Origin: Octopus vulgaris
Lineage: Eukaryota
Assembly: GCA_951406725.2 (NCBI GenBank)
Contig: OX597843.1
Coordinates: 19,840,001-19,904,000 of the forward strand
DNA length: 64,000 bases
Direction of reading: 5' to 3'
The notes under the pieces are model-generated. The model ran no database searches, had not been told where the DNA came from, and was given only the letters and a program-made list of their open reading frames with translations. This document shows, one piece after another, positions 6,327 to 48,215 of this stretch (the stretch's first letter is position 1; every line of letters starts with the position of its first letter). Made by a program: the position numbers and the translations under genes.

Positions 6327-6398
6327 ATTGTCTGTAAACTTAGAAGATTTTGAAAGGCTCCTTGTGAGATGGTTGTGATCTTATTCCTATCGAGATCT
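6327..6398 (-). CDS. 72-nt LRR exon (one 24-aa repeat)
   Basis: Acceptor tgtgttttatttttcAG and donor GTaagt. Phase 2-2 translation is DLDRNKITTISQGAFQNLLSLQT(I). Confidence 0.9.
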
Positions 6399-6829
6399 CT
6401 GAAAAATAAAACACAATTCAAAAGTAAGAGTATTAAATATTATTAAAAAGATTTCTTATAAGATATTAATTCTTGTATCTTTAGAATCATATTAATAAAA
6501 AGAGGACGGTGAAGGAGAAAATGGCCGAGATGATGTTGATGATGATGATGGGGATGAGGATTGCGATGTTGACTGTAAATGTTGTAATAATGACGGTGAG
6601 AAGGAAAAATAATGTTGATTATTATCGAAAACCATGACAAACGCTACCGATTAATTGGTGATGACGAAGTTGATTATTATGATGTTCATAACGAATGTGA
6701 TGACGATTCTGCATGCTAGAAATAGCAGAGTAAATGAGGGAAGGAAATAGTTATGATGACATGATAAAATATAACGATTAGTGAAAACGAAAATATGATT
6801 AGCAGAAGGACTATGAATATGATAGCGCT

Positions 6830-6840
6830 GAAGATGATAC

Positions 6841-6880
<40 letters not shown>

Positions 6881-6937
6881 AATGATGACGAAGATGATGA
6901 TGATGATGATGATGATGATAATGACGACGATGATTAC

Positions 6938-6996
<59 letters not shown>

Positions 6997-7040
6997 CGAT
7001 GACGATGATGGTGACGATCGTGATGATGATGATGATGATG
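6830..7040. repeat. (GAT)n microsatellite
   Basis: Directly visible. It produces the spurious poly-His and poly-Met ORFs. Confidence 0.95.
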
Positions 7041-7153
7041 CAAGATGTGATGGAAAATTAGAAATTGATTAGAAACGAAGATGGTGAAGGAAAATAAGTC
7101 ATAGAACGGATAAATACAGAGAAGTAGAAGGAGAATAATAATAATAATAATAA

Positions 7154-7184
<31 letters not shown>

Positions 7185-7439
7185 AAGAAGAAGCGAAAAT
7201 GATTCATGAAGAGAGGAGAAAGCAGTTGATTAAAAGCAGAAGAATCAGAAAATGATGAACAAGATGAATGTAGAGAAAAATTGTGAAGAAGACGATAAAT
7301 GCAGGAAAAGAAGTTATATTAAGACAAGAAAAATAACGTGGAATATCAGAATGGGGAAACAAGTGGGAATAAAAGAATATAAATACAAATACTATAGTCA
7401 CACATCAAACAAACGCAAACATATATATATATATATATA

Positions 7440-9560
7440 TATAACGGGAAGCTTTATGAAAATAAACAAAAGACGAAGGCAGGTGGAAAACAAACGAACA
7501 ATTGTATTAGTATGGCGCTCAGGAAATATAAATAAAACAAGTCTTTAACGTTTCGAGCCTACGCTCTTCAACAGAAAGATACACAGAGAGAAAAACACAG
7601 AAAGAAGGAGAGAAAAAAAATGCGTGCAGTAGCTAACGAATCAACATGGCGATCTGATTTCGGCCAGAGGTCAAAGATCAAACATGAGACGCGAGAGCGA
7701 AATAAGGGGAGATAATAGGGTTGAGGGACCAGCTAAAAGTGCGTGGGAGGGGTCTGGATGTGTGTATGTATAGGGTTGGTGTATGTATTAGTATGTATAA
7801 GGGTGTGTGTGTGTGTGTGTGTGTGTGTATGAGAGAGTATTAGTGCGTAGGATTGGTCTGGACGTGCGTATGTATGGGGTTGGTGTATGTATTAGTATGT
7901 ATTAGTATGTATTAGTACGTATTGGTATGTATAGGTGTGTGTGTGTGTGTGTGAGAGAGTATAAGTGCGTATGTGGGGTCTGGACGTGTGTATGTATAGG
8001 GTTGGTGTAAGTATGAGTATGTACTAGTATGTATTAGTACGTATTAGTATGTATTAGTTGGTGTGTGTATTAGTATGGCACATCATATGTGATGTGATGT
8101 GTAAAGTCATGTGGTGTAGTGAGGAGAAGAGGGGGAGGGGAGAAGAGGGGGAGAAGGGGAGGGGAAGAAGAGGGGGAGGGGAGGGTGAAGAGGAGAGGAT
8201 GGGGAGAAGGAAGGGGAGGAGAGGGATGAAGGAGGAAAGAGGGAGAGGGGGAGAGAGAAGGGGAGAGAGGGAGTGAGGGAGCAGAGGGAAGGGGAAGAGG
8301 GAGGGAGAAAGAGGGAAGAAGGGAAGGGGAGTAGGGGTGAAAGGATGAAGGACTGAAGAAGTAGGGGTCGGGGGGAGAAAGGATAGGTGAGGAGGGGGGA
8401 GAGGGGGGGTTAGATGAGGAGGGGGGGGGGGAGAGTTGAGACCAAATGGCGTATAAGAGCGAAGAGAGAAGATTAATTCCTGTTCACGGCGCAAACGGGA
8501 ATCCGGATGGCCTCTGTGTAAGGACAAACCGAACACAGATAGGTGTTGCAAGGAGTGACCGGTGGAGCGGAAATGGCGTGAGACCGGTGTGTCGTTCGCA
8601 AGGTGGATGTCACGAAGGTGTTCCGCGAACCGGTCAGCCAAGCGGCGTCCCGTTTGTCCGATGTACAAGGAATTGCAGAGAGAGCAAGAGATGCAATAGA
8701 TAATATTGCTGGAGGTGCAGGTGAAGGAGTGGATGATGGGATAGGGTCGATGGTGGGTGCTAGTGAGGCGGGTGGTGTTGGAGAGGTAAGGGCAAGTGCG
8801 GCAACGTGGGCGGGAGCAGGGGAACGAGCCGGGTTGGGAGGTAGGGTCAGGGAAGGAGCTATGGACCAAAAGGTCTCGAAGGTTGTGGGCTCGTTTGAAA
8901 GAGGGGAGGGGTCGGTTAGGGAAGAGGTGTGAAGTGGACGGGTCGGACTGGAGATGACGGAAAGCTCGAAGAATGGTGGGTTGGAGACGTAGGGTCGTGG
9001 GGTGGTAAGTGAGGGGAAAAGGAGGCGGGAGACTACAGGGCGGGTTCGGGGAGAGAGAGCAGATACACGGTCCACGGACCGTGCTCTGGCAAGGGCGGTG
9101 TGGATAGTGGTGAGGGGGTATCCACGTAGGGTGAAGTGGTGAGCCATACGTTGAGACTGAGTCTCAAAGTCATGGTCGTCACTACAGAGCCTACGTAGAC
9201 GGAGGAATTGGGAATAGGGGATGGAAAGCTTGGTGTGTTCTGGGTGGGAGAAAGAGAAGTTGAGGTATGAGTGTGAGTCTGTGTGTTTGTAGTGAATGGA
9301 GGTGGTAAGAGTGGAGTCAAGAATGCTAACCGAAATGTCGAGGAAGGAGATAGTGGAAGTGAAGTGGAGGGCTGGATGGAAAGATTGGACGAAAGAGAGG
9401 AAGGAATCTAGATGTTCGCGGGAGAGTGAGGTGGCACCGATAATGTCGTCAATATAACGACCATATAGTTCAGGAGTGGGACCAGTGAAAGTAGAGAATA
9501 TTTGGGCCTCAACATAGCCAACGAACAGGTTCGCATAGTTGGGGCCCATTCGCGTTCCCA
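7440..9560 (-). mobile_element. 5'-truncated Penelope-like retroelement (RT C-terminal part + GIY-YIG endonuclease + terminal repeat)
   Basis: MGTRMGPNYANLFVGY...RYIDD (RT) and IIYCISCSLCNSLYIGQTGRRLADRFAEH (GIY-YIG), frameshifted and flanked by microsatellites. Confidence 0.92.
7541..7580 (-). ncRNA. Minimal hammerhead motif (U3-G8 variant) in the Penelope 3' repeat
   Basis: ucuuucug-UUGAAGA-gcguaggcuc-GAAA-cg-UU-aaagac, at the expected place downstream of the GIY-YIG ORF. Confidence 0.55.
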
Positions 9561-9570
9561 TATATATACC

Positions 9571-9623
<53 letters not shown>

Positions 9624-9674
9624 GATTATGCATTTGATTTGCAAGAATTTTGATGTTAAATCGTGTGTTGAAAC

Positions 9675-10156
9675 AGATATTGTTGTATTTAGGAATGGTC
9701 ATTTTGCCAGTTTAGCCAATAAAAACACACGCACTATATATTTAGTGTTATTGTGCTTCAGTGTATTTATTTTTTACATTAATCTTATTTCGACCAAAGT
9801 ACTTTCGTCACACTCCTGTGACCTCATCAGTAGTCCTTTGTTTTTTTCTTTCATATTTGTGTGTCTCTCCTTACTAACGATCAGCCATTTTGTATTTTGT
9901 ATTCCAATTGTACGTGTCTTCATTTGCGCATGGGTATACCTCTATATGTGTCTATGTTTAGTTAGTGTGTGTGTGGGGGGAGGTGCCTATAATATTTGTA
10001 TCTCATGTTTATATACGTCCGAAAGAAATCTGGCCGAAATAAAATTTAGATTAATGTAAAAAATAAATAACGCAGAAGCAAAATAACACCAAATATATAG
10101 TGCGTGTGTTTTTATTGGCTAAAGGGCCAAAATGACCATTCCTAAATACAACAACA
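9675..10156. repeat. Inverted repeat (~130-bp arms, 9675-9808 / 10018-10156) of a PLE terminal repeat
   Basis: ttgttgtatttaggaatggtcattttg...acacacgcactatatattt is the reverse complement of aaatatatagtgcgtgtgt...caaaatgaccattcctaaatacaacaa. Confidence 0.85.
9792..9835 (-). ncRNA. Canonical minimal type I hammerhead motif
   Basis: gacua-CUGAUGA-ggucac-aggagu-gugac-GAAA-guac-UU-ugguc, with palindromic AAGUACUU stem III. Confidence 0.8.
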
Positions 10157-10779
10157 ATATATATATATGTGTGTGTGTGTCTGTGTGTGTCTGTGTACAT
10201 ACACACATCCACCTATATATACGTTATCAGACCCTGATGTATAAACGCACACACTCACTTCCAGCCCTCACATATATTCCCACTTACTTACACACAGGCA
10301 AACACAAATTGCAAGACAATATGAATTGTAGAAGAATGAGGGTAAATAAAGAAGATAAGAGAGACATTTAGTTTGTGGAAATGACATTGGATGACATATC
10401 GTGATCTTATTATGAAGAAGATGACTAACATAAGAGAAAGTTGATGATGAAGAAGAAAACAACGATGAAGCAGCAGCAGCAGCAGTAGTAGTGGTAGTAG
10501 TAGTAGTAGTAGTAGTAGAAGAAGAAGAAGAAGAAGAAGAAGAAGAAGAAGAATACGATGGTGATGATGATGATGATGATGATTATGATGATAACGATGA
10601 TGAGCAACAACAACAGCAACAACATTAAAACAACAATAAGAGAAGTGGCAGAAAATGTAGGAACTGAAGAAAAGAATGATATAACAAATAAGGAGGAAAC
10701 GAAGGAGTCTGTCATGAAGAAAACTTGAATATAATATTTCTGATCTTATAATAATTCTGCTTGTCATTATGTTAATTAG

Positions 10780-11400
10780 TCCGTCGGTAACGCTTTCTCG
10801 TGATTAGAGAAAAAGAGGGAGAACGAAAAAGAGCAAAAGAGAAATGTCCATGACCTGAGGTAGAAGGGACGTGACTGTAATGCTTTCACGTGATTAGTTA
10901 AATGGAAAGAGAGACCAAGAGAAAGAAAAAGGAATGAGAAAACGAAAGTAAGTCGAAGAGTGGGGCAGAAAGAGAGAGAGAGGGAGAAAAGGGGAGAGAG
11001 AAAAGAGCGAGGGAGAAAAAGAGGGAGGGGACATGTGGTAGGGGGAACGTAATATTTATTACGTGATGAAAAAGTTAGTTGAAGGTAGTGATATTGAGGA
11101 GGGTTACGAATATAATTTTAGCAGAACGGTGATGTTCTGATGGTGAGATTAAAATAAGGCAGATAGGCAGATAAAGAGATAGGTATATAAACTGAGAAAA
11201 TGAGAGAAAGGGGGAGTGAGAGACGGTGGTAGTGGTGGTAGTGGTTGTGGTGGAAGTGGTGATGATGAGTGCATAATGCAAAGTAACTTTTTAATTGAAC
11301 TAAGTATTTTATATTCCCTATCACTTAACGCATGCTCATAAATGCAATTCTTTTAAATATTCAAACTTATTTACAGTGTCATATGTACGGCGTATATATA

Positions 11401-11494
<94 letters not shown>

Positions 11495-14326
11495 CAATTA
11501 AGAAACATATACACTATAATTAAAATATATATATTTCAATTAAAATAGAGGTGGACACAGTAAATTCCATCTCTACAAGATCCCGGTTGATGTTGTTACT
11601 ACTTCTCATACATTCTGCCGTTGGTTGTGCTTCCGCTTCGGCGAGATAGAAATTCGCAGTTTACGGTTATTTGATCGTTGTTCCAAAGATGTGCTTATGA
11701 AATAAGCAAATTACAAAACTTGACCGAACAATGGATAATTAAAGAAGATTAGAAGCTACTCGCGAGAGGGTTAGGGACTACAGGCAGCGGATAAGAGAAG
11801 AGCAGCGGTAAGAAATTAGAGAAAGGGATAAATGGTACCAACAGATGAGACGATCTGCAATAGACGAAGAGCAACGCAAGGCACAATTGTAGTGAGAGAG
11901 AATGCGAGACCAAGGTAGACGACAGGATGAGGAAGAACAAACAGAGTACAAGGAACAACAAAGATTGATATTTCTGCGGAGAATGGAAAACATGAATGAT
12001 ATGCAGTGTGCGCAGTATCAAGACCAACAGAAAAATGTTATGTAACAGAGAAGGGAGAATATGGATGATTTGGAAAGGGCTGCTTGTCTTCAAGGTCAAA
12101 CAGAGAGACATCAAAATGGAGTTGCAAGTATGAATGCTGAACAGGCGTTACCTTGTTCGAGATGAACAGGTGCAACGAAAGCGTGAAGGTAGACATGGAC
12201 TAACACTGAACAGACACAATAATTCTAAACGAACCTATCGTATTGGTCTTCTACAATTAAAATAGTAAATAGTTCACTGTGAGCCATTGACAGAGAGCGT
12301 TGGGTAATCGATTTGCGTCGTGTAAACACTTTCTTTCCCCCTCGATTCCTTAAATCATACGTCCAAACCAGGGTATAAAAGTGCCGAAGAGTTCTTCGAA
12401 GTTTGAGTTGGACGTTTAAATTTGTACGGGATGGGTATGAAACCAAAGAAAAATCGTTTAACATAGAAGGCTTATTGGCGTCTGTGGTGCAGTTGCAACA
12501 GCAACAATAGTAACAACAACAAGAGCAACTACAACAGCAGCAACCACAAAACCAAGAGTTGCTGGAATTAATGTTAAAGAAGTCTAAAAATACTTCAGGT
12601 GCGAACTTGCCAGACAGCGTAGCAATCTCTATTGAAGAGTTCAGTTATAATCCAAAAGATGGGATTACCTTCTCTAAGATACGAATAAATTTTTAAAGAA
12701 GAATTTATAAATTGATCTGAGGGGGAAAATAGTACGACTACTTTGTAAGACAGGTATCCCTTGCCAAATACAGAAAATATAGTAATTATATTCTGGCCAT
12801 GAAGTCAAGTGAGATTTGTTTCAATAAAAACTATTAACATTTTATCAAATGATTTAGAACTGGACCAAAATTAACTCTACAGACAGAAGTAGAAGAATGC
12901 CAGGAAAGACGACGCAGAAAAAAATGAAAGAAAAGATTGCTCTCATATTCCAGTGTCTCCACCGTAACGGATAAGAAATCAGACAAAAAATGTCACGAAG
13001 GAGTCCATGTTGTGGTCTACATTTTAAAAGGAACTGCCCGTTTAAAATCCAAAACCGAAATTTTATCAAAACGTTTCAGGGAAAGGAGTTCTCTGCTAAA
13101 TACTTGAGGACAGATTTTATATTTTGTCCAAAAACATGTAGATTTCATCACCTGTGCCGAGGCTGTTAACGGAAAGTGTAAAGAATTCAAATTATATGAA
13201 TTAAGATGATGTTCAAATGCATATTTTTGGTTTAAGGCCTAACTGCAAGCAAAGATGGAAATATATGTTCACGGATGTCAACAAAATTAGAACTGGACAA
13301 AAAGTAACTCTACAGGCAGAAGCAGAAGAATGTCAGGAAAGACGACGCAGAAAAAATGAAGAAAGCGACGCCCAAAACGAAATTGAAGAAAAAGATTGCT
13401 CTCATATTCCAGTGTCTCCACCGTAACGGATAAGAAATAAGAGAAAAAATGTCAAGATCGAATCCATGTTGTGGGTGCGGTGGTCAACATTTTAAAAGTA
13501 ATTGTCCGTTTCAAAATATTAAAGGCGTCAAATGTGGCAAGAGAGATCATTAAAAAATCACACTGTAGAACAAACCTGGAAAACAGTTCAACAGAAAGAA
13601 AACACGAAAACAGGTTATCGGTGACCAAAAAAACGAACAGCCTCAAAGGAAATTTGTGTACGTAAAGTTGCAACTAGATAAGGGCAGTGATACCTGTATA
13701 ATTAACACAGATACATAGAAAAAAAACAGAAATCCTAGATTAAAAGACATTTCGAAAATTGTAGGTGGTGTTTCAGGAAAATAATTACATTTTAATGGTG
13801 TAATGATAAATCACGTTCCATTTTGTAGGAAAACCTCACTAATTTATTCTGAACACTGAATAGAATTGCTTAACTTATCGGAACTCCCCATAAATCTTTT
13901 CAGTAAAAATGTGAATGGTTTTCTTGCCAATACAAATAAATCGTCGACTATTTGTAGAAATAATTTTAAATGATTTTTTCTGAAGTTCTCTCTGATAAAT
14001 TAGATCTCAGCATCACCACGAAAACGAAGTTCCAAGTAAAAGTAAATGCCAAACCGGTATTTAAATATAAACGAACTGTAACCTTTGCATCGTGGGAACA
14101 GATAAGCTTTTGCATCGTTAGAAACAAATAAACAAAATCAGAGTGTATGCTGATTTTTCCACTGGTTTAAATGAGTGTCTTAAAACGTTCCACTATCCGC
14201 TACCTACCCTGGGGGATATATTTGCAAAATTAGACGGTGGCAAGGTATTTTCTTAATTGGATCTCTCTGACGCGTACCTACATATTAGAGTAGACGATGA
14301 ATGCTATAAATACCTAAACATTAACG

Positions 14327-14366
<40 letters not shown>

Positions 14367-17300
14367 ACAGGTTACTATATGTCTTTAATGTCACACCGGC
14401 AATTTTTAAACAGCTTATAGATGCAGTGTTAGCGGATAGTGAATTTGCATTTCCATATCTGGATGATATACTCATTAAAAGCGGATCACGGGATCAACAT
14501 GTAGAGCATATAATACATATGTTCGAAAAAAATTAGGGATTACATTGAAAAAGAAAGCGTGATTTCTTTCTGACCGTGATTTCTTTCTGAATACTGAATC
14601 GGCGCAGTAATGCTACATGAATAAAAAGATGGTAACATGAAGGCGGTGGTTCTTGATATCAGCAGAAAATATTACAGCCAAATCAAAAAAGAGGCTCTTG
14701 TAATTATTTTTGCCGTAAAAATTGCATAGATTTTTACACGGCAGAAGTTTTTGAATACAGACAGATCATCGTCCGTTATTATCAGTATATGAGTAAAAGA
14801 AATAAATATCTAGCCGTACTGCTAATAGGCTGCAACGCTGGGGTACTGTATTATTAAACTATGAATTTAAGATAGAGTATATACTATCTAAAAGATTAGG
14901 ACACGCTAATTGTTTATCATGACCGATTTCAGAAAATGCTGAACCATGTGAAGATACCGTGATTGCTACTTTGCGAATAGAAAATGAAATTAAAAGCAAA
15001 CGGTATAACTCCATGCGTGAACTGCTATTTACGTTACAAGACATAAAATTACAATTGGGAAACGATATATTCATTACAAAATGAAAGAAATGCAGAAGTG
15101 TTAAAGAGATAAAAGATATTCGAGCCTATCACGAGCTGTGACAATGTGCTGATGTATGCACAAAGAGTCGTAGTGCCAGCCACACTACAAAAGCAATTAC
15201 TAAAGGAATTTCATATTGAGTCAAAGGGATTTCGATAATGAAATCGTTAATGAGAAGTTAGGTATACTGGCCAACAACGGACTGTAACATTGAAGATATA
15301 GTGATAGTATGCAATACGCTGTTCTCTAGCTCCAAATACACCCGTCACAAAATGGCACCCGTGGCCAAAATCACTTAAGGTTTCATATTTTTTCGTTGTG
15401 GGGGAATGTTTTTCAACGTGGTCTGAAGTGCATAAATGTAGAAAGCAGACATCTCTGGTTACAAATATATTTGATGTTTGTTAGAATAATCAGATCCATC
15501 TTTGATCAGCCGATACCGAGAGAAAATATATAAAAAAAGAAACAATATTTCAAAATTCTTCAAGTTAGGTGACAAAGTGTTTGAAGACCTATAGATATCG
15601 TAAACAAGGCTGGGAGGATGGTACAATTGTTATATAAATTGCAAGAATGATATTCCTGGTAAAAGGTAAAACAAATATCGAACATAAAAGACTTATTAAC
15701 CAACTTAAAACCTGATTCAAGGAAAAATCAGACAAAAGAAGTGAATTTCTCATGAAAGTATTGCACGACACGTTTGAGGTACCAACACAGAAACAATTTG
15801 TAATTACACGTTCTAGCACCAGAAAACGAAACGAATGGAAACACAAGAATTGAGCCCTAAGCATAAGAGATATTAAAATTCTGAGCGATTTTAATTCTCA
15901 AGTGGAGAATTTAGGGGAGACTAATTCTATAAAGGGGAGATGCTGTGGAAAGATTCTGACAATCTTCCAAGTGACTAAAAGTGGTCTGACACATTTCCAT
16001 TACATGGAGAACTGTCTAGTCGTAAGCAACTGATTGTGAAGAATTGATTGGTAAGCATTTCCCTATGATCCGTTGGCAGAGAGCGTCGAGTCTCACGTAA
16101 CAGTAATCGTATTGCGTCGTGTAAATAGCTTCGTTAAATTATATATCCAATACCAGGATATAGAACGTATTCAGGGCCAAACTTAGCACAACACTACGAA
16201 CTGTCAATGGTCACCTGCAGTACAGTCAGTTGTATATTATTAATACATCGCAGAGTGGAAGCAAGTCAGAACTCCCAAAGCTCTTCTCAAAGAATGGGTG
16301 TCATGTGCAACAAGTAAATCCTTATGCTGAGTTATATGGGAACATGCACTTAATTGAACAACAAGAGATTGGAAGTGCCAGGAGTGAAAATTTACAATTA
16401 CGAAAGTGTGAAATACATTTCAAAAGAACGGGATATATAAGGCGCTACAATTTTTCCCCTAGCAATGAAATAACTGCACCCTGAAAACCCTAATTGCCAT
16501 GAGAGAGAAAATAATCTGCAGCGAAATAAGACTTTTGAAAACCGATATATCATTGAATTTCTGAAGGATATGGTGGACAGACATGTATTTGATGTAAGAG
16601 TAACTCATGTCCGTGTCATTGAGTTTCAAAAGAGAGGACTTCCACACTGCCATATGCTCGTAGACAAAGTGAAGATCAGATATGATATAGACAGAATGGT
16701 ACCAGCAGAAATTTCTGATTCAAATGATGACCCCGTCTTACATGATTTAATTTTAAAAAATTCATGAGACTTGGACATTGTGGTGTTTATAACCCCTCAT
16801 CGCAATACATGGGGAATGGCTCTTGCCAAAGGAAGTTTCCGAAGAACAACAGAAATGAGACACTACTAAATATTAATGGATATCCAGAGTACAGGAGGCA
16901 CAATAAAGGGATCACATCACAAGTTGGATGCCATTCTTTTAACAACTGGTATGTCGTTCCATACTATGCTTACCTATTAAAGAAATTCCGAGCTCATATT
17001 AACGTTGAAGTTTGCTCATCTTTAATAATGTCAAGTATATATGCAAGTATGTCTAATACGGTCGTGATAGCGCTTCAGTTGAAGTAAGGAATGATGCAGT
17101 TGCAGAAGGTGGACAGACTCAGCAACCCCAAGGCTAAATCAGAAATTATTTTGCGTGTTGATATGTTTCACCTTCTGAAGCCATGTGGAGAATGCCTACG
17201 TACAAGCTGCATGACTCGTTCCACACTGTCTACAGATTAGCAGTTCACTTTGAAGACCAGCGGAGACTGAGCTTTCACAGAGGTAGCACTTAGCAACCTG

Positions 17301-18030
17301 ATCAAGAACAGAGAGATCGTGACAATACTCTCACTGCATGGTTCAAACTGAATGAGCACGATTAACGGAAGTACTTGTACCCTAACATTCCTATGCGTTA
17401 TGTGTTTAATGAACGTACAAAAACCATGAACACTCAAGAGAAAAATCAATACCATCGGCTGCAGAATGAACACAGTGAGTCCTAAGGACGTAAAAAAATT
17501 TCATTACGATTGCTATTTCGGATGTTCCAGGTGCTAAGCGCTTTGAGAAGTGAGCACTGTAGGAGGTGAAATCTATGCAACATTTAAAGATGCGTACGTA
17601 TGAGTTGGTCTCCTCCAAAATGATGAGGGTTTGGAGCATACTATACTTGAAGCTGCTGCGTATCGGATGCCATTTCAGTTGCGTATTACGTTTGCTGTCC
17701 TCTGCACCTATTCAAGTTCTTCCAATGTTCTTCGCCTGTGGAATACTGACAAGAATTCTATGATGGAAGATTATGCTCACCGAGGGTTGAATGCAGACAC
17801 TACACTTCATAAATTCTCTGTTAATTGAAAATGGCGTTAGCTGGTTTAATATTAGCTTGCTTGAACCAATTGGAATGTAACGGGTTGAGCAGAAAGATGA
17901 CATGAACCACCCACTCATTGCAACCCTTACCAACGAGAAGAAAGGGATCGCCGATGCAGTCATTAAAGACAGTTGGTAAGAAAAGTTTGAGGTGAGATGC
18001 TGGAATCTTTCTATTTCTCTGCTGATTTTC
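10780..18030 (+). mobile_element. Decayed Helitron (family A) interrupted by Gypsy
   Basis: Charged N-terminal repeats at 11.75-12.2 kb. Rep motifs RVIEFQKRGLPHCHML, HCGVYNP and VVPY...KKFRAHINVEVCSS at 16.5-17.05 kb. Confidence 0.82.
12247..16198 (+). mobile_element. Decayed Ty3/Gypsy LTR retrotransposon nested in the Helitron
   Basis: Protease-like LQLDKGSD, RT LDLSDAY...FPYLDD, RNase H YSQIKKEAL, TDHRPL, ANRLQRW and integrase-like VYWP. PPT aaaggggaga (15931-15940) precedes a 3' LTR starting TG at 15941. Confidence 0.88.
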
Positions 18031-18284
18031 CCGGGGGCTGTAACTTCATAAATTCCAATTCAATCCGTACACTTCTGTAAATTTCTTATTTACTTTTGCA
18101 ACGTTTTGTGTTTTGTGTTTGTTGTTGTTGAAGGAATTACTGATAAATGTAATTTCATAATTTACTGCCAGGAGTAACTTCAAACATTTCGCTTAAACCC
18201 GCGCACATAATTAATTTCCCTAAAAATTTCTTATTTACCACATTTGTTTTCAAGTAACCCTCTGTTTTAAATTTCCGGTTTCAT

Positions 18285-20700: not shown

Positions 20701-20799
20701 AGATAGATTGATAATTTAGATAGAGCGAGAGAGACAGATAGAAACATACAAAGATACATACATACATACTTATATATACATACATACTTAGATAAAAAG

Positions 20800-21185: not shown

Positions 21186-21189
21186 TTGT

Positions 21190-24620: not shown

Positions 24621-24659
24621 GAAAAGCCTCAGTGTTATAATGTGTAAGAATTTAAGAGA

Positions 24660-27600
24660 TAAAAAGGGAGGCTAAGAGAAATGGTGGTAGTGGTTGTGGG
24701 TGTGGTGGTAGTTAGTATTTCAAATCCCCTATCACATAACGCATGCTCAGAAATGCAATTCCATGAAATATTCACACTTATATACAGTGCCATAAGTACG
24801 GCGTATATATATTTTACAAGTATATATATATAGATATATATATATATATATATGTGTGGAGGTGCAATGGCCTAGTGGTTAGGGCAGCGGACTTGCGGTC
24901 GTAGGGTCACGGTTTCGATTCCTTGTGAGTGTATATTGAGTGAAAACACCTAAAAGCACCACGAGGCTCCGGCAGGGGGTGGTGATCCCTGCTGTACTCT
25001 TTCACCACTCTTTCTCCCACTCTTTCGTCTGTTGACCTGCTAGCTTAGCCAGCGGGGTGGCGTCATTTCAAGGCTAAAACAATGCGAACACATTGTGACC
25101 AGCGATGTGTAGCAACATCTGATGGTCTGGTCGGTCACATGATAATGATGATGGTGATGATGATATATATATATATATATATATATTATAATGAAAGTAC
25201 CAGGAGTGTAAATGTACAATTGCAAAAGTGTGAACTACACTTCAGAAGAAGGGATTATATAAGGGGTTACAATTTTTCCACAAGCAATGAAATAGCTGCA
25301 CCGTGAAAATAGAGACATTCTTGTCTATCCATGGAATACACATGCAGAGCGAATCTCGCAGACATAGTGCCATCTAGTCTCAATGAGTTATCCACTTCTA
25401 TTACCTCATGGAATGTCCGGATGGCACTGTGGGATTCTATATGTGGAGAAACGCAGAACATCCGCTGGCAGACGACTCACGATGTAATTTAGGGTTGCTG
25501 ATTGCAGTACCTAGGGGACCATCAGGCCCAGTTGCTCGTAGAGCAGTACAGTGGACTTATGGACTACATGCAGAGAGGAGCTTTGAAGAAGTGAACACTG
25601 TAGGAGGTGAAATCTATGCAAGATTTAAAGATGCGTACATATGAGTTGGTCTCCTCCAAAATTATGTGATGTTGGAACATGCCATACTAAAGGTGCTGCA
25701 TACATATCGGATGGCATTTCGGCCGCGTATCACGTTTGTTGTCCTTTGCACCTATTCAAATCATTCAAATGTCCTTCGCCTGAGGAACACTCACAAGAAT
25801 ACCATGATGGTAGATTATGCTCAGCGAGGTTTGAATGCATACTCTACACTCTATAAATTCTATGCAAATTGAAAATGGCATTAGCTGCCTTAATATTGGC
25901 TTGTCTGAACCAGTTCGAGTGTAACGGGTAGGGCATAAACATGACATGAACCACCCCGGCATTGCAACCGTTACCGATGAGCAGAGAGTGATCGCTGATG
26001 CATTCATTGAAGACAGTTGATAAGAAAATGTGAGGTGAGGTGCTGGAATGTTCCTGCTTCTATGCAGAGGTTCCTGGAGGTTGGGACAAGAATTACATAT
26101 TTAATACGCTGATCTCACATCTACGAAGGAGAAACTATCAAGTGGTGCGTGCAGAGGCATAGCTTCAACATTGATGTCTGGTGGAGGGACGGTGCACAGT
26201 TTGCGCAAATTGCCCGTTCCTCTGTTGGAAAGTAGCTTTTGCAGTGTACCACCCATCTCTGACCAGAAATTATTTGAGAAATTTGTATTTCATCATTATA
26301 GATGAAGCTTCCATGATCCCTCTTTATGCTTTTCATGCAAATGACAAAGCTCTGAAAGAAATCACTGGCAACAATGGTTTCGGTTGAAAAGTTGTGCTCA
26401 TTGGTAGAGCCTTCAGTCAAGTTCTGCCAATATTGCCAAGAGGAACTCGTGAGACAGTAATTCAGATCTCCATTAAGAACTCTCCTCTCTGGTTACACTT
26501 CAGACATTTATATGTTGAGCCAAAATAGAGCAATAACAGATCGAAGAGAATTTGCAACATGGCCACTACACTTTGACAATGGCACCACAGCTCTTTTGCA
26601 AGATCCAAGTGAGTCAGTGATGATGTAAACGTGCGACGTGATTCATGCTTTAATGGGTCGCTGATAAATAATGCTTTTTGGCAATGCCCCTCAAGAAAAA
26701 AGAACAAGTAGAGCGATCCACTCACCAAAAAGTTCAGACTGCTTAAAGATAAACGAAGGGGTTATGGATAAACTCCAAGGTGACCAGTGTTTTTAATACA
26801 GCATGGATAACGTCTTCACAGATGACCTGCTGAAGCTGAGTGATATCCACTGGAATTTCTGATTTCATGGATACCATCTGGAATGCCACCTCCTAGATTG
26901 CATTTGAAACCTGACTCCATAATCATGCCCCTGAGGAATATTTCAATTGAAAATGGTCTCTATAACGGAACATGACTGGAAGTGGAGGCCCTCAATCAAA
27001 ACTCGATTGAAGCCTCAATAATAAGTGGCACATTGATCGGGGGACGTATTCTCATTCACAGAATAAGGCTGGCACTGAGATACCAAACCCCGTTCGCTTG
27101 ACAATTGCAATGACTATCAATAAATCACATGGGCAGATATTTGATAAACTGGATCTATTCTCTCCTGAACTGCGTATTAATGTTCAGCTATATGTCGTTT
27201 CCCAAGGGCTCACAAACATTATCTGATATTAAAGTTAAAGTTATCAACACTGACAAACAAAGGAAAAGAAGAGGGAGAGGTTACGCGAACAACACAATCT
27301 GTAACGAAGTATTGGATTGAAAGGTGTACGCAAATTGAAATATATATAATCTCTGATGCACCGCCTTTCTTATGAACTACCAACGATGTGGCTTTCAGAC
27401 GATGCCATGTTGCATTAAATTTTCAACCCTATGTTTTACCTATAAAATCATTTTTTTACTATAATATTTTTGTTTTCTTGATATGAATTTGTGACCATGT
27501 AAAATTTAAAATGTAATTTTTTTCTCTCTATGGGGTAAATGGAAAAAATATTAAATTTTTATTTTATGATTGCTGTGTATTAAGTCTATAACATCGTACA

Positions 27601-35862: not shown

Positions 35863-35903
<41 letters not shown>

Positions 35904-36676: not shown

Positions 36677-36760
<84 letters not shown>

Positions 36761-36763
<3 letters not shown>

Positions 36764-37100
36764 CGTAGGAGTGGCTGTGTGGTAAGTATCTTGCTTACGA
36801 ACCACATGGTTCTGGGTTCAGTCCCACTTTGTGGCACCTTAGGCAAGTGTCTTCTGCTATAACCTCAGGCCGACCAAAGATTTGTGAGTAGATTTCATTG
36901 ACAGAAACTGAAAGAAGCCTGTCGTATGTAAGTATATATATTTATGTATGTGTGTATGTATATGTTTGTGTGTCTGTGTTTGTCTTCCCAACATCGCCTG
37001 ACAACCGATACTGGTGTGTTTACGTCTTAGCGGTTCAGAAAAAGAAACCGATAGAATAAGTACTAGGCTTACAAAGAATAAGTTCTGAGGTCGATTTGAT
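36761..37100 (+). mobile_element. Octopus-type tRNA-derived SINE after (TA)n
   Basis: aggagtggctgtgtggtaag...gggttcagtcccac..., homologous to 58775-59198. Confidence 0.85.
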
Positions 37101-37119
37101 CGATGTTTCTTTATCTCTC

Positions 37120-39399: not shown

Positions 39400-42300
39400 T
39401 TGGATACGATAACTACGACAGAGTTTAGGAGACCTGGCGTTGTGGTTGGTCGAAAAGTTGGCGTATTTGAGGTTCTCCTTAAGTTTTTGTCATGGGTGGA
39501 AGCTGACTGTCCTTTGTTTCGGAAACCTATCGGTCATACGACTGCCTGCAGTACCCCCTACTGTTTCCCCTTTGGAGAGGATGGCAACAGCTTTCACCAA
39601 CGCCATGTTGATCCAATCACGGGTGCTGAATTAACCAAGGCTGTTTCCTGCAAGGAATTCTATGCCTTCCGTCTTATGGTCAGAGAAGGTCAGTTCAACC
39701 AACTACTACGGTACAAGGAAGTCACAAATCAATTCTTGGTTGACATGTTTGCCAAGGCTGAAGGTGAAAGGCTTCTTTGTATTCGTTAAAATCAAAAGAA
39801 ATTGCGTGTGGATCGATATCTTACCGTTCATGTCCAGCTGTATGTTAATGCAAGAAACATTGGCCTTCCGGTGATACGTCCTTCCAGCCATACCGGGTCT
39901 CGACGGTATATGCATCAGCGGACACAGGATGCCATGGCATATGTCCGTAAATTTAGCGAACCTGACCTCTTCATCGCCTTTACGTGCAACTCAACTTGGC
40001 GAGAGATAAAGGAAAACTTATTCGAGGGCCAGGCTGCATGCGACAGGCACGACTTAGTGGCCAGAGTTTTCCACGGAAAATTGCAGAAATGTATGTGGCT
40101 ATTGAAACATGATGCTGTCTACAGAAAACTTAACTCGTGGATGTATATTGTAGAATGGCAAAAGCGGGGTCTTCCACACGCCCATATACTGATTTGGTGT
40201 CAAGAAAGAATCAGACCTGCGGACATAGATAAGATTATATGTGTAGAGCTGCCTGACCCTAATGTCAACTTGCAGGTATTCCAAATAGTGTCGGCGCATA
40301 TGACACACGGGCCCTGTGGTGTCTTGAATACTAATTCTCCGTGTAATGAAAAAAATAGATGTTCAAATAACCATCCCAGGGCTTTCAACAGGGCTATATG
40401 TACTGGTATTGATGGCTACCCAATTTACTGACGACGTGCCCCTGGCATTGGAGGAATTTCAGCGCAAAGAGGATAAAGAGCAAAGACATTGCCTTCAACA
40501 ACATTATGGTTGTTCCCTACAGCCCTGTCTCCCTTAAAAACTTCAACGCCCACATCAACGTTGAATCTTGCACCTCGATTAAAGGCAAAGTACATATGCA
40601 AACATGTAAACAAGGGCAGCGACATGGCTGCTTTGGGTGAGCAGGATGAAGAGACAGCCAACGATGAAATCCTTCAATATTTCGTCTAATATGGCGGCAT
40701 GGCGCATTTTAGGTTTGGATATTCACCAGTCCGCTGCATCTGTTTTTGGCTAGATGTACACTTAGAAAATAGGCAACGTGTTTACTTCACTTGGACTAAC
40801 AAAAAATGTCAAAGGCGGCGTCAGGGTGTGCGAATCGACAATGAGGTCGGCGAGGTAATCTACAAAGGAAACATGATCGGTCGTGTCCACACTGTACACC
40901 CAAAGGATCAGGAGTGCTTTTTTGCGGATGATTCTGTTTCATATGAAAGACCCAACATCATTTGCCCACGTCAGATCATTCGAAGGACAAATGTGTTGCA
41001 CTTACAGGGAAGCTTGCTTGCGACGGTGACTACTCGAGGATGAGGGTCTCTGGAACACGGCATTGCAAGAGGCCTCTGAATGCAGGACACCAGAAGCAAT
41101 GCGCCGAATATTTTGTCTCATCTTGCTATTCAGTAATGTGTCTAACCCTCTTCATTTCTGGGACACATTTAAAGATAGTTTTTCCGAAGATTATCTCCGA
41201 CGACTTCAAGCCGAAGATCCAACGGCTGGATTCGACCTCAATAACGTCATCTACAACACAGCCCTCCTCGATTTGCAATCGCGACTGCAAGCTATGGGAG
41301 GAGTTGGCGTCCTCAGATTTCAGCCGGCCGTCTCCGCGGGATATTTCAACTGCTTTAGCTGCTGAGTACATGCGAGAGATGAGCTACAACACGCAGGAAA
41401 TGGTGGTGCAGGTTGCTCAGGACGAGCCTACACTTTTGGAAGTACAGAGAATTGAATACAATAGGTTCCTCACCAGTGGCAATTCCAACAAAGGACGAAT
41501 TTTTTTTCTTGGATGCTCCCGGCAGAACCGGAAAAACTTTTCACATGAACCTCCTACTCGCCAAAATTCGTCAGAAAATCCGAATTCTTATAGCGGTTGC
41601 ATCCAGCGGCATCGCAGCAACTCTACTGCATGACGGTCGTACGGCACACTCAGCATTCAAATTACCACTAGACTTGACCAAACAGGGAAATCCAACTTGC
41701 AATGTTAGTCGCGGCTCAGCCATGGGGAATCTTCTCACTGAGTGCAGCCTTATCATTTCGGATGAGGAAGCCATGTGTTATAAGGCAGAATTTGAGGCGC
41801 TCGAGCGGTTCTTCAAGACCTGAGACGGAACATGAGAGTGATGGGTGGAGTGATTGTTCTGCTTGCTGGCAACTTCCGACAAACTCTACCTGTCATTCCA
41901 CGGGGGACAAGAGCTGACGAGGTAAATGCTTCCATAAAATCATCCTACTTATGGCACCACAGCGAGAAACTTCACCTGACTACGAACATGAGAGTTCACG
42001 TGTTTGGCGACGAAAATGCGGCCACATTCTCGGCGCAGCTTCTCGATGTTAGTAATGGAACTGTAGCTGGTGATACTGATGGTTTCATCCATTTACCATT
42101 TGGTAACATCGTGCCTACCAAAGATGATTTGATTTCTGCAATTTTTCCTGACATTGCAAGCCAAAGCCTTCACACAACTTGCCTACAAGAAGAGCAATTT
42201 TGGCGCCTCACAACAAAACAGTCGACGCTATCAATAATAAAGTTTTTGATCTGCTTCCTGGAGAAAAACTCTCCTTCAAGTCCATTGACACGCATGAAAA

Positions 42301-42945
42301 CCCGGAGGATATGTCCGTTTTCATAACAGAATTTCTTAATTCCCAAACGCCCACAGGAATTCCGCCTCTGGAACTCCATCTCAAGGTTGGCGCCCCATCA
42401 TGCTGCTGCGGAATCTGGATGCTCAAATAATATGTAACGGCACACGGATGATAATAAAAAATATATACTCCCGAGTTCTGCAGGCAACCATATTGAATGG
42501 ACCAGCCACTGTTCAAGATGTTCTTATAACCCCAATGTCCCTCACTCCCTTCGATACGATCTACAAGTTTAAGCGGTTTCAATTTCCTATCAACATCACC
42601 TTTGCAATGACAATATATAAGGCAGAGGGTCAATCATTGCAAATGGTTGGTTTAAATCTCACAGAGCAAGTATTCTCGCACGGTGAACTCTCTGTTTGAT
42701 GCTCCCATGTTGGCAGCAAACAAAGTCTAGACATTTGCGCATCAGAAGGGAAAACGAGAAATGTTGCCTACAAAGAAGCGCTCCACTGAAAAGATGGCAT
42801 TTCTTCACATCTTTCAAATCACCCCAGTCATCTGCCGCCTCAAAAGCTTCGTAGTCACCGTGCCAGCCAACGTAACTCAATGACACACACCTTAACTCAT
42901 TCACCCTATCTCTCTTTCTCACTCTCTTTCTCTCTCTCACACACA

Positions 42946-42993
<48 letters not shown>

Positions 42994-43374
42994 TTCATTT
43001 CACATATCTTTCAATTTCTGCTCTCTGAAAAGAAAATGTTTATGGATACAACTGCTTACAAAAATAGGGATTAATGTATAATTTCTTTCTATCTTCATAA
43101 TTAAATAAATGTTTTAATGATTAAACAGTGGTCCGATGCAATAGCTCTCAGAAACAGACTACGTACAAATTCTTTCTTCACATCTCCTGAAGCTGTTTTC
43201 TTACAGCGGGCGGGGTTGTGATGGAAAGAAATTTTCATATAGCTGGAGGCTCCAATCGGAACGGGGTACCCGAAATGATAAGGTTGAGAAACGTTGTTAT
43301 AGATTATGCCAAGCCGAAAACGATCACACCCACATCATCCAAACAGACCGGGTGAAACCGGGCTTAGCTGCTAG
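39400..43374 (+). mobile_element. Helitron family B: Rep/Pif1 helicase pseudogene with canonical 3' end
   Basis: AFTCNSTW, VEWQKRGLPHAHILIW, HGPCG, KYICKHVNKGSD, FLDAPGRTGKTF, GRTAHSAFKLP, GNFRQTLPVIPRG and FAMTIYKAEGQSL. Hairpin ccgggtgaaaccgg (43348-61) and CTAG (43371-74) followed by T. Confidence 0.92.
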
Positions 43375-43494
43375 TTTACCTATGTTAACACATGTATGTA
43401 TATGCAAACTTCCTGTTAACAAAAGTCGGGATGCGTGACGTTCAGTTATTCCAAAAATGTAAATTGTTTTAAATACTACAAAACATACAAAAGA

Positions 43495-43585
43495 AACTTG
43501 CCCAAGGTGTCATGCAGTGGGACTTAACCTGGAATCATGTGATTCGGTGGCATACTTCTTAGCGCACATCTACTCCTGCGCCTAC
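43495..43585 (-). mobile_element. SINE 5' fragment
   Basis: Reverse complement of the aggcgcaggagt...ttccaggttaagtcccactg...accttgggcaag head. Confidence 0.7.
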
Positions 43586-43659
43586 ACACACACGCACACA
43601 CACACGCACACACGCACACACACACGCACACACACACACATATATATATATACACACAC

Positions 43660-43722
<63 letters not shown>

Positions 43723-44029
43723 CATACATATATATGATACAATCTTCATCTTAGTTATTTCGCTGTTCACCACCAGAAAGTAAACATTCGCACTGATGGT
43801 ATCTGGACATATAATGCGGGGTTATTTTACACCTATCAGCGCTAAAACGGTGATGATCGAAACCTAACATCACGATGGAAACAATTGTAGGATTGCTTTA
43901 TGTTTATGTCATTTGTTGATTCGCTTCCTTTACATCTTAAATATTGTACGTATTACTCTTTTCAGCGAGATAAAAAAAATAGCCAGGTATCCTCTATATT
44001 TCTTCTCTATTTCCTTTTATTAACTATAT

Positions 44030-44100
<71 letters not shown>

Positions 44101-44103
44101 CGT

Positions 44104-44142
<39 letters not shown>

Positions 44143-44229
44143 GGTAGATACATGGGTAAAAAAATCGGATTCATTATGAAAGAATTCATCAATAAACCAA
44201 ATTTCAAAATCTGTGAGAGAAACAAAGTA

Positions 44230-44284
<55 letters not shown>

Positions 44285-44633
44285 CTATGTCTTTCATTTT
44301 CTCAACGCAAAATTCCCCACTCTATGAATTAATCGCTTAGTTTGAGTGTTAGTGTTTGTGTTTGTCAGTGTATGTGTATGCTTGTGTATAAGGAATTTCA
44401 TTAAGGAAACACGGTAATGTAAAAACTGTATGCAATATAATAGATTTTAATAGCATACATTTCCGTCACTAAATATGATTTTTCTTACACACACACACAC
44501 ACACACACTCACATACACACAGAAGAAAGCACTACGAACGCACGCACGCACATGCACACACACATATATGTACATAACTATAGGTATGTGTTAATGTGTA
44601 ATTTGATGTGTATAATGTATTAATACATACATG

Positions 44634-44664
<31 letters not shown>

Positions 44665-45181
44665 CACATATATTTAGCCACTTTAAAGTGATCGTGGGAA
44701 ATATTTTTTTGCTTCTTATACTGCTTCTTTCATGAACAGAGATCTTCTAACATTTTAGTGTCCTAGTCACACAATCAGTGACACTATTTTCTATATATTG
44801 CAATCGAAGTAAACTCCTGACATGCCTGGCGACGACTACCCACCTCTAAGGAGATCAAATACAGATCGAGACCTGTGGGTGGTAGAGTCTTGAAGCTACG
44901 GAAGCAGGTGTTATCTCCCGATTGCACTAAATATCGAGTGAATAGAATCGAACTGAATAAATCAACTGATGTGTTCCTGTGGTTAAATGGCAGTATAGTC
45001 GTATCGTAGACGACGAATAGATAGATAAATAGAAAGAAAGAGAGAGAGAGAGAGAGAGATAATATAGATAGAGATATATATTTACATATATATATATAAA
45101 TGCACAAATAAAAGCTGATATATGTATATGAGACAGATGTATGCATGTACAAATATTTATTTAGTATATATATATATACAT

Positions 45182-45231
<50 letters not shown>

Positions 45232-45520
45232 ATGTAATTTCAACAATTGAGGGTAAAATTAATTAATTATTAATCAATTTCACCAAGTATTCAGTATGTA
45301 AAGTGACCATTTAAGGCGAATTCAAATTATTACATTATATAAAAGGGCTTAGTAAAATAAATTACTTTGCCACATACTGAACTCATTGGAAATAGTAGCT
45401 AAAAAAACTTTTTAAAACTATTTCTAATACTTAAAAAAATCTCTCTCATATAGTGTTTGCTCAATTCAACTCACGAAAGTATGGGGTAAAGACATTAAAA
45501 AATCAAATGCAAAGGTTATT

Positions 45521-45572
45521 TGAGAACGTACGTTTCAAGATTAGTCAACTCGACATTTCTATCATCAGCTCA
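45521..45572 (-). ncRNA. Type I hammerhead motif inside a ~650-bp insert with ~85-bp direct terminal repeats (45236-45322 / 45793-45879)
   Basis: ugag-CUGAUGA-uagaaaugucgaguugacuaaucuu-GAAA-cguacg-UU-cuca, with palindromic stem III. Confidence 0.72.
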
Positions 45573-45995
45573 GAACTCCTTGGTTTGGATTTGAAAACAC
45601 TGAAAGTGGGAGCATACCCTTTCGGCTTCTTATCGCTTCTGAAGATCTGCTCGAAACTAACAGTGCCAGCAAACCCAAAATATGCAAGCGAAGAATTTCT
45701 GCTCTCCCCTTTCCACCAGCGTGGGTTAAAATCAGTAAACACTATGCTTTTTCGGTAAAATCCGAAGCATTAAATAGAGAGAGATGAATTATAATTTCAA
45801 CAATTGAGGGTAAAATTAATTAATTATTAATCAATTTCACCAAGTATTCAGTATGTAAAGGGACCATTTAAGGCGAATTGTATGTATGTATGCATGAAAT
45901 GCATACATATCTATAAGTGTATATATATAAATACACAAACACAAGCAGATATATATATATGAGATAGATGTTTGCATGTATGAATATTTATTTAG

Positions 45996-46049
<54 letters not shown>

Positions 46050-46091
46050 TGTATATATATATGTATGTATGAAATACATACATATCTATAA

Positions 46092-46146
<55 letters not shown>

Positions 46147-46158
46147 TATATGCATGTA

Positions 46159-46890
46159 CGAGGTCGTTTCAAATTTCTTGAATGAGTTCTATAGCGCGCA
46201 AACAGATGGCTGCATACGATTGTATGCGTGGTGGCAACTATCAGTGATCTTCATGAGGCACCCTGTTGAGCGACATCGCTCTATATACTTCTGCAAGATG
46301 TGGAATTTGAAATTTGGTGATACTGTAATCTGCAATTTTGTCATGAAGAGGAAATTGGAAGAAATGAAGAAAGTGTAATTTTTTGTTAAAATCGGGAAGT
46401 CTGCTACAGAGAGACAGAGAATGCTTTGGCAAACTTATGGCGGCGAGATAGTGGATTGTACTTAATGTTTCGAGTGTATGGGCGCACAAAAATCTACAGC
46501 TTCATCCAGAGCATGTTCATCATTTTTCCCGACATCCTCGGTATTGTGCATTGGGAGATTTTTCAGGGAAGACGTTCGGGGAAAATGACCGGTTCTGTGA
46601 TTCGCGAAGTATTGAAGTTTTCTCGACAACAATGCACCTATCACCTCACTCGTGAGTTTCTTGCCAAAAACAACGTGCTATCGCTTCCGCACCTGCCCTA
46701 TTCGCCAGATTTACCACCTGCTGACTTCCATCTGTTCCTCAAGATGAAAAATCAACTCAGAGGTCGAGATCAAGAGTGAATTTAACACCGTCGTCGAGAT
46801 CAAGAGGTCCTCGACTCACCTACGGAAAACTACGTCCAGGCTGGATTCCAAAAGTGTCAGAAAAGCTGGGGTCGCTGTATTATTGCTCAG
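46159..46890 (+). mobile_element. Decayed mariner transposon (duplicated copy)
   Basis: HLPYSPDLPPADFHLFLKMKNQLRG in ORF 46426-46779. Confidence 0.85.
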
Positions 46891-47341
46891 GTAACATAAG
46901 GTTTCTTTCAGTTACCGTGTACCCAATCAACCAGGTTTGTTCGGCTGGAGACCAGAGTACACGCATAAGGACTGAATACAGAAGGACAATTCTTATCACA
47001 CAGCCATGCCAACGCCAAAGCGAATGCACACGCACACACACACACACACACATACATACACACAGACACACACATACACAGACACACATACACACACAAA
47101 AACACTATACACAATTATTACGGAAATGGAAAATGGATTTTACGAGATTCGTTAATCACTACGGCCGTTTCAGCCCGTCTTCAATCGGCCCCTCACGGAT
47201 GAGATAATGGTCGATTGGCCGCGGTGCATCTTTCTTTGCAGATGTTTCTCATCAGTTGACATTTCAAAAAGTTCTCTGCTCAATAAACTCGGTTTCACTT
47301 GGTTCGATTATAATGTATTTCGTTAGTTAATAATAATAATG

Positions 47342-47384
<43 letters not shown>

Positions 47385-48143
47385 GAGGAGGAAGAAGAAG
47401 AAGAACAACAACAACAACAACAAAAACAACAACAACGAAGTCGGTGATGAATAAAAGTAATACAAATAGCAAAAAAAAACAGACAAGATGGACAAGCAAA
47501 ACAATAACAAGAAAATTTGGGAATCAGGATAGAAACGATAATAAAAATATATCAACATAAGTAAAATTATCAGACATACACACAGACACAAACGTACGAG
47601 GGATACACAAAACGTTGTTTTATGTTTTGGACGACTAGCTACATTAACATCCTTCCTAAAGAAATTGAAACGGCATATGCAGCCATCAAACTGGCCAGTT
47701 TGACCAAATTGGCCCAGCTGTAGCTCACTGTACACAAAGAAAATGACGACTACCAACTTCAGCAAGTCATGTAATTGTAGAGTTTAAAATAACTCATATT
47801 ATAGAATCAGTATCTCAAACGAGTAAGGATGAATATATTTCTATACTTTCTTTTCTTGAAGTGAGTATAATTCTGCATTAATATATATTTCATAATATAC
47901 CCACCTATAGACACAGATGCAAACATAGATATTTACGTGCAATCGTACACTCATACACAAAATGTTAGACATTTATGAAGACACATAGAGACACAAACAC
48001 TCATAGACACCTTCATACACACTCTAACATGAAAATAGTAGCAGAACATTAGAGAAAGAGAGAGAAAAAGGAAGATAAGAAGACATTAAGTTCCTAGAAA
48101 AAATTCGTAAATAGAATAATATCAAAAAACTTAACCAACTTAC

Positions 48144-48215
48144 ATTTCCTTTAAACTTGGAAGATTTTTAAAGGATCCTTGTGAGATGGTTGTGATCTTA
48201 TTCTTATAGAGATAT
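48144..48215 (-). CDS. 72-nt LRR exon (one 24-aa repeat), duplicate of 6327-6398
   Basis: Acceptor tgtgttttatgtttcAG and donor GTaagt. Phase 2-2 translation is YLYKNKITTISQGSFKNLPSLKE(I). Confidence 0.9.

Follow-up and report, generated by a model that had tools for sequence, protein, structure and literature searches.

It is well established that proteins built of leucine-rich repeats (LRRs) bind their ligands by the concave face of the repeats and that adhesion G-protein-coupled receptors (GPCRs) signal through their GPS and seven-transmembrane (7TM) parts. The closest design to the one described here is that of the brown-algal ROCO genes, which have in common with the octopus exons treated below 72-bp phase-2 exons of one LRR each, tandem arrays of such exons, positive selection at concave-face sites and a candidate immune role (PMC11378527). 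In the octopus, Ritschard et al. (2019; PMC6408891) have described a group 3 of receptors that combine a GPS with a class-B 7TM region, carry LRRs in some members and are clustered in tandem, as is the case for the gene considered here; LRRs were recorded in 5 of 22 sequences, and that account gives selection at the level of branches and no selected sites. The present analysis concerns a window of 64,000 nucleotides of Octopus vulgaris DNA (contig OX597843.1, positions 19,840,001 to 19,904,000, assembly GCA_951406725.2), whose own numbering is used below for positions without a prefix, and the adhesion GPCR gene of ~211 kb to which it belongs, the LRR head of which is built of single-repeat exons. 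Our reading, to which we give a probability of roughly 0.68, is that two similar exons of the window are consecutive LRR modules of one adhesion GPCR, the strand positions of which diversify under strong selection, likely because its LRR head binds non-self ligands that change, for instance proteins of microbes or parasites.

The two exons lie on the minus strand and are the fourth and the last of five closely related "family" exons in the gene, at 48144-48215 (YLYKNKITTISQGSFKNLPSLKE; residues 25-47 of the predicted protein P0010) and 6327-6398 (DLDRNKITTISQGAFQNLLSLQT; residues 49-71 of P0010, with a contig match described below). Each is 72 nt long, is flanked by a TTTCAG acceptor and a GTAAGT donor, has phase 2-2 and codes for one 24-residue LRR. 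They belong to a tandemly duplicated genomic unit of exon and intron DNA, the copies of which (3146-18238, with exon 6327-6398, and 44674-55806, with exon 48144-48215) consist of collinear blocks at offsets of 37.6-42.1 kb and have diverged by ~6%, with 329 substitutions in 5264 intron sites over nine blocks, and by indels. An earlier note on this DNA had counted 9 differences in 72 nt between the exons, all of them non-synonymous and none synonymous, and a recount agrees exactly; it likewise returns the eight residue changes (D1Y, D3Y, R4K, A14S, Q16K, L19P, Q22K and T23E) and the 14 differences in an intron sample of 230 sites. The clustering of the changes in the x codons of the xxIxLxx strand also held, at 6 of 15 nt as compared to 3 of 57 elsewhere in the pair (p = 0.002). 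By itself, the exon pair falls short of dN/dS > 1: the probability of no synonymous change among nine is 0.104 at kappa 1, 0.070 at kappa 2 and 0.055 at kappa 3, and Fisher's test of exon versus intron gives p = 0.08 with the 14/230 sample and 0.11 with 81 differences in 1113 flank sites. The diversifying selection that had been read from the pair was thus drawn from too small a sample, and it is a dN/dS test over 42 paralogous exons that bears it out.

In a genome search with the exon, all 40 of the scored candidates, from 48 candidates in total, were matches, and a pattern search gave 45 matches (0 with the reversed control). These close copies reside in four paralogs, 5 of them in the window gene and 18, 13 and 9 in the others, and 43 of the 45 have intact splice sites and frame, the exceptions being one copy with a 1-nt insertion and one without an acceptor. 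The concave class was set beforehand as the five x positions of the xxLxLxx motif (22, 23, 1, 3 and 4), the solvent-exposed residues of which make up the concave ligand face (PMC4049777), a choice that is standard and also agrees with that of the earlier note. In exon 6327-6398 these hypervariable positions, predicted to lie on that face, fall in codons 1-4 (6386-6397, minus strand; positions 1, 3 and 4) and codons 22-23 (6329-6334, minus strand), both with site omega of 5-13. Pair statistics were taken over the 43 intact exons, among which positions 1, 3 and 4 show 9, 12 and 12 different residues and positions 22 and 23 show 10 each. Over all pairs pN is 0.572 in concave codons and 0.114 elsewhere, with an overall pS of 0.148 and a mean intron p of 0.152. 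Of 21 disjoint pairs one was dropped for intron p > 0.15. In the remaining 20, differences fall at 115.9 of 242 nonsynonymous concave sites (pN 0.479) as compared to 29.2 of 300 synonymous sites (0.098) and an intron value of 0.045; in 19 of these pairs the concave pN is higher than the intron value.

After the two broken copies and an identical duplicate had been removed, 42 exons remained for maximum-likelihood (ML) models, which were fitted on three topologies (exon, combined and intron); the residue triplets at positions 1, 3 and 4 take 38 different forms among these exons. The dN/dS ratio (omega) of the concave class is 8.96, 13.5 and 13.3, and that of the rest 1.26, 1.31 and 1.20, with likelihood-ratio test (LRT) values of 123-198, so that the site-level test for which the earlier note had called gives an omega of 9-13 at positions 1, 3, 4, 22 and 23. 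The comparison of M2a with M1a gives an LRT of 115-164 over the three topologies, on all of which the same five positions have a naive empirical Bayes (NEB) posterior above 0.95. When the concave class is allowed its own synonymous rate, omega is 8.8-11.4 (LRT 29.5-35) and that rate is 0.15-0.18, against 0.14-0.17 in the rest, an equality which counts against local hypermutation. Neutral simulations reached an LRT of 29.5 in 0 of 40 runs on one tree, 0 of 40 with two blocks and 1 of 40 with each codon on a shuffled tree. A penultimate LRR exon that occurs once per gene differs among the four genes only at positions 1, 4, 19 and 23. The mapping of variable sites on a structure, also called for in the earlier note, was done on a predicted model of the paralog P0035, folded in place of P0010, whose own model had a mean pLDDT of 36; positions 23 and 1 fall within its repeated beta-strand, as strands at 24-residue spacing are predicted to cover positions 23, 24 and 1 (pLDDT ~80-98 in the LRR part).

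Several points weigh against this picture. The selection test rests on 23 codons, recombination makes all of the trees wrong, and the codon models are our own code, not PAML. The intron baseline of 0.045 is biased low, the disjoint pairs having been chosen for lowest intron distance, and the fair comparison is therefore with synonymous sites inside the exons. Selection is not limited to the strand either, since two of the three trees put positions 6, 11 and 14 above NEB 0.95 as well and the non-concave class averages an omega of 1.2-1.3. Pair counting shows raised synonymous differences in the concave codons (0.226), which are probably due to path averaging over multi-hit codons and are absent under ML. 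Finally, the RNA status of runs X1-X3, the contigs of which bear on splicing (below), is a guess, no matching run being recorded as RNA. Taken together, it is nonetheless very probable that strand positions of the LRR head that are predicted to be exposed are under diversifying selection on the predicted binding face.

The gene around the two exons reads, in order, as a signal-peptide/LRRNT exon, the five family LRR exons, the penultimate LRR exon, an LRRCT exon, Cys-rich and HRM-like parts, the GPS and the class-B 7TM region. The signal-peptide/LRRNT-like exon (C30:19992062-19992250) was recognised by homology and a hydrophobic stretch; the divergent penultimate exon lies at 842-913 on the minus strand (ELQNNQIQKYEDGAFLFLPSIKT) and is followed by LRRCT ~10 kb past the window start and, on the same strand, by the 7TM exons at 45-50 kb past it. 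These last, when translated, are 100% identical to P0001, a protein of Octopus vulgaris to which NCBI gives the name adhesion GPCR G6-like and that maps exon by exon from C30:19830488 to ~19781217, its first part being LRRCT; P0010, a second model named by NCBI, carries both window exons in tandem. Junction codons (Leu or Ile) are in frame from the signal-peptide exon via the five family exons to the penultimate LRR, and there are 0 assembly gaps within the gene. The minus strand of C30:19.78-20.14 Mb contains 546 open AG-72-GY candidates, of which only 7 score as LRR; none of these lies in the 41.7-kb intron between the two exons (6399-48143, minus strand), where transposon relics occur but no additional LRR exon. 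With one signal-peptide exon and one LRRCT around five exons, in-frame junctions and no gap, the repeats are therefore neighbours in one gene: the two exons are consecutive exons of a single gene, and their origin from two duplicated genes or as two alleles is ruled out. The Pfam model PF00002 (7tm_2) scores 142.6 bits in P0010 (cut-off 20.6), and PF01825 (GPS) scores 52.7 bits with an intact His-Leu-Thr, a motif from which autoproteolysis and G-protein signalling are predicted for this gene. Pfam also finds LRR_8 and a weak HRM match. The long N-terminus of the adhesion GPCR is present as a signal-peptide/LRRNT-like exon, six LRR exons, LRRCT and a weak HRM. PF16489 (GAIN) has no match in P0001 or P0010 and stays below cut-off in the paralogs, and a genome search with LRR_8 does not list the family exons because they are too short for that model.

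It appears that the concave sheet would bind the ligand and that the GPS/7TM part would signal. A non-self ligand is favoured by the substitution rate, by the turnover of repeats and by the expression of group 3 in skin, suckers and gills (PMC6408891), and that a biotic non-self ligand is bound by the LRR head seems to us somewhat the better supposition; the "immune or allorecognition" role proposed in the earlier note may be entertained by analogy. A rather unlikely alternative is a code of self-recognition or wiring in the variable head, similar to those of protocadherins or Dscam or used in the recognition of self skin by suckers, with endogenous or family partners. Such a code would suit adhesion GPCRs, which mediate cell contact, and diversifying selection is also found in allorecognition genes. 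In O. bimaculoides group 3 shows enrichment in axial nerve cord, suckers and skin, and a complementarity of group 3 with the protocadherins has been suggested by the authors (PMC6408891). However, the very fast turnover of repeat number and sequence in genes that are ~95% identical in their introns would fit an arms race better, and in C. minor group 3 is expressed most strongly in the gills (PMC6408891). As a more tentative extension of the non-self reading, the octopus may possess an inherited, antibody-like repertoire, in which dozens of adhesion GPCR genes with interchangeable one-repeat exons, including a gene of >1 Mb with at least 18 such exons, would be diversified by duplication, short-tract conversion and exon skipping, and would serve, at skin, suckers and gills, to distinguish non-self from self, with coupling to G-protein signalling.

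Contigs of runs X1-X3 are confined to exon sequence and link one LRR exon to another; those of X5, a run of unrecorded kind, cover introns too. Contig identity was taken from the single-piece record only; the difference counts of multi-piece records looked pooled. Two or three family exons stand in tandem in contigs of X1, X2 and X3, so that the exclusivity of Dscam-type exons, with one variant per transcript, is not found here. One X3 contig is identical to 6327-6377 over 51 nt (0 differences) and then matches 884-913 exactly, with the joint at 6327 to 913, and its unbranched course takes in 47 nt of the penultimate exon. Exon 48144 has no match at 99% or more in the X1-X3 contigs, which can show presence and not absence. 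In X1 and X2 (two samples, one organism code) two different upstream exon ends are found before one and the same exon start (that of 6327-6398), which may be due to exon skipping, paralogs or haplotypes. These observations bear on the possibility, an improbable one in our judgement, that combinatorial splicing is the main source of diversity, each transcript taking a differing subset of symmetric exons. The phase 2-2 of all family exons, which makes them skippable in frame, and the two upstream ends in X1 and X2 speak for it, as does the alternative splicing of LRR exons of equal size and phase in brown-algal ROCO genes (PMC11378527); against it are the tandem joints of up to three family exons, which are not mutually exclusive, the unbranched X3 contig, a weak sign of a single upstream partner, and the chance that paralogs or haplotypes account for X1 and X2. 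Splicing of this kind can coexist with the diversification of strand positions for a non-self ligand.

Under that reading, repeats would be gained and lost by unequal crossing-over of units of 15-50 kb, a gain and loss that phase 2-2 exons would tolerate, and short tracts would pass from exon to exon and from gene to gene by ectopic conversion in the germline. Duplication of units is visible inside the window gene; one of the duplicated units spans two exons and has its copy at an offset of 45-51 kb. Exon L013 of this gene and L023 of another differ at 0 of 399 flank sites and 14 of 72 exon sites, and in L017 and L033 near-identity gives way to divergence within the exon. All nine copies with Gln19 share a linked synonymous marker that is present in 4 of the 33 others, a distribution that needs 6 changes on the intron tree. 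On intron trees the retention index is 0.34-0.36 for exon sites and 0.36-0.48 for the opposite flank, and upstream and downstream flanks conflict with one another about as much as non-concave exon sites conflict with either. Exon-targeted conversion as a special mechanism is unsupported, as exon sites fit the intron trees about as well as the opposite flank does, and ordinary ectopic recombination therefore suffices; inside the exon the relation of incompatibility to distance is borderline (p = 0.06). Beside the exons (flanks of 45) intron diversity is at its lowest, 0.06-0.14, and it is 0.2 or more further out, a profile consistent with homogenising conversion or splice constraint, the far values being inflated by misalignment.

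The homogenised flanks, the exon pair that alone is non-significant for dN/dS and the copies L006 and L007, whose identity over 2.2 kb may reflect an assembly duplicate, could be taken to mean that there is no selection at all and that small-sample noise, local hypermutation or a gene conversion or assembly artefact underlies the pattern. This explanation is largely refuted, and we regard it as very improbable, given an ML synonymous rate that is the same at concave codons and elsewhere, an LRT that was reached in 1 of 120 neutral simulations, and a gap-free gene with units ~6% apart and separated by indels. Slightly less probable still is that the exons are donor cassettes copied somatically into an expression site, as in the variable lymphocyte receptors (VLRs) of jawless vertebrates, for even though the exon profile with its 24-residue repeats matches lamprey VLR structures among 39 PDB sequences and the exons are mosaics, the gene already has all its parts, in frame, in the germline, nearly all exons (43/45) keep splice sites and frame, the RNA-like contigs join at exon ends, the retention indices give no clear targeting of exchange to exons, and real VLR cassettes are germline-incomplete and assembled by deaminase-driven copying (PMC13428168).

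The family extends beyond these four genes, with 53 matches to an N-terminal exon and, for the LRRCT exon, 64 (both counts take in weak and partial matches), and with 49 protein matches to the ectodomain (residues 1-500), apparently all from Octopus by source name, one name being incomplete. P0001 is identical at 425 of 882 residues (48%) to A0A0L8FLR8, which Ritschard et al. (PMC6408891) list under group 3 in their supplementary file 3, and by this homology the window gene most likely belongs to their octopus-specific group 3 expansion. The two broken exons are L036 (C31:1287167), a frameshifted copy of 73 nt, and L052 (C30:18637559), the copy without an acceptor. One paralog extends over ~1 Mb and has at least 18 family exons (C30:20.12-21.16 Mb and C39:105001-125000; L089-L113); its introns are ~95% identical to those of the window gene, and it could be a divergent haplotype. 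Its 5' exon was not found up to the contig end. Homology places the end of C39 next to the DNA that follows the gap at 20120719 (the matching points in the window gene are 19831943 and 19832008, side by side), so that C39 likely fills that gap and supplies this paralog with LRRCT to 7TM. At C30:20581071-20804106 four family exons stand on the opposite strand between assembly gaps; a scaffolding flip is likelier than a separate gene or a real inversion, the block being edged by those gaps, and it contains L006, already noted for its identity with L007. In the 13-exon paralog (C30:18.57-18.77 Mb; L056-L063 and exon loci) homology to P0001 ends after the HRM-like exons, and no GPS or 7TM was found on its own strand down to 18548001, so that it is possibly secreted or truncated. 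The GPS His-Leu-Thr is altered to Arg-Leu-Lys or Tyr-Leu-Thr in P0002, P0003, P0005 and P0006, which suggests that the family mixes putatively cleaved and non-cleaved members. At C9:28.19-28.89 Mb more than 20 single-exon 7tm_2 matches lie densely clustered, perhaps as the Methuselah-like group 4 expansion. Within the long intron of the window gene there are Helitron relics on the plus strand, namely a Helitron_like_N match of 134 bits (39790-40428) and a weak piece of PIF1 helicase (26235-26375), while an open reading frame at 8057-9163 (minus strand) has a GIY-YIG match below cut-off and is perhaps a Penelope-like relic.

The adhesion GPCR family itself is already known; the exon-cassette array with concave-site selection may be new. 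The available part of the group 3 account (PMC6408891) does not mention one-LRR-per-exon arrays, variation in repeat number or exon exchange, and that of PMC9712504 holds nothing on the octopus LRR-exon family. No published description of one-LRR exon arrays in cephalopods was found in a search that reached few subscription papers, nor was a highly variable recognition receptor family of cephalopods found in the literature searched. Gene models mostly miss the LRR exons (P0001 has 0 of 6 and P0010 2 of 6, and a family exon occurs in 2 of 58 LRR-like stored proteins screened), which may explain the lack of selected sites in the protein-level study. The locus is thus a candidate variable receptor of cephalopods with an explicit predicted binding-face signature and a built-in signalling domain, for which the five positions, the four paralogs and the exon maps permit direct tests of ligand and expression.

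Glycoprotein-hormone receptors and LGRs resemble the octopus gene in bearing an LRR ectodomain on a GPCR, with phase-2 one-LRR exons in the luteinizing hormone receptor, and the structures of LGR4 and LGR5 are matched by the octopus exon profile; they are class A receptors with conserved ligands and a fixed repeat number, whereas the octopus gene has 7tm_2 and GPS and is hypervariable. VLRs have 24-residue extracellular LRR modules like those of the octopus family, and their variable concave face lies between LRRNT and LRRCT caps. They are assembled somatically from incomplete cassettes (PMC13428168), whereas in the octopus the whole gene is present in the germline, undergoes splicing and has a terminal 7TM region. 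In plant extracellular-LRR receptors such as Ve1 and Cf of tomato the solvent-exposed x residues of xxLxLxx set ligand specificity, and the same five positions are selected in the octopus, although the plant receptors are single-pass, have known pathogen ligands and contain no GPCR part (PMC4049777). The ROCO proteins of brown algae are intracellular ROC-COR GTPases with documented alternative splicing (PMC11378527), as compared to an animal cell-surface GPCR with a unit of 15-50 kb per exon. The octopus design thus converges on that of the brown-algal ROCO genes and resembles the VLRs without their somatic assembly.

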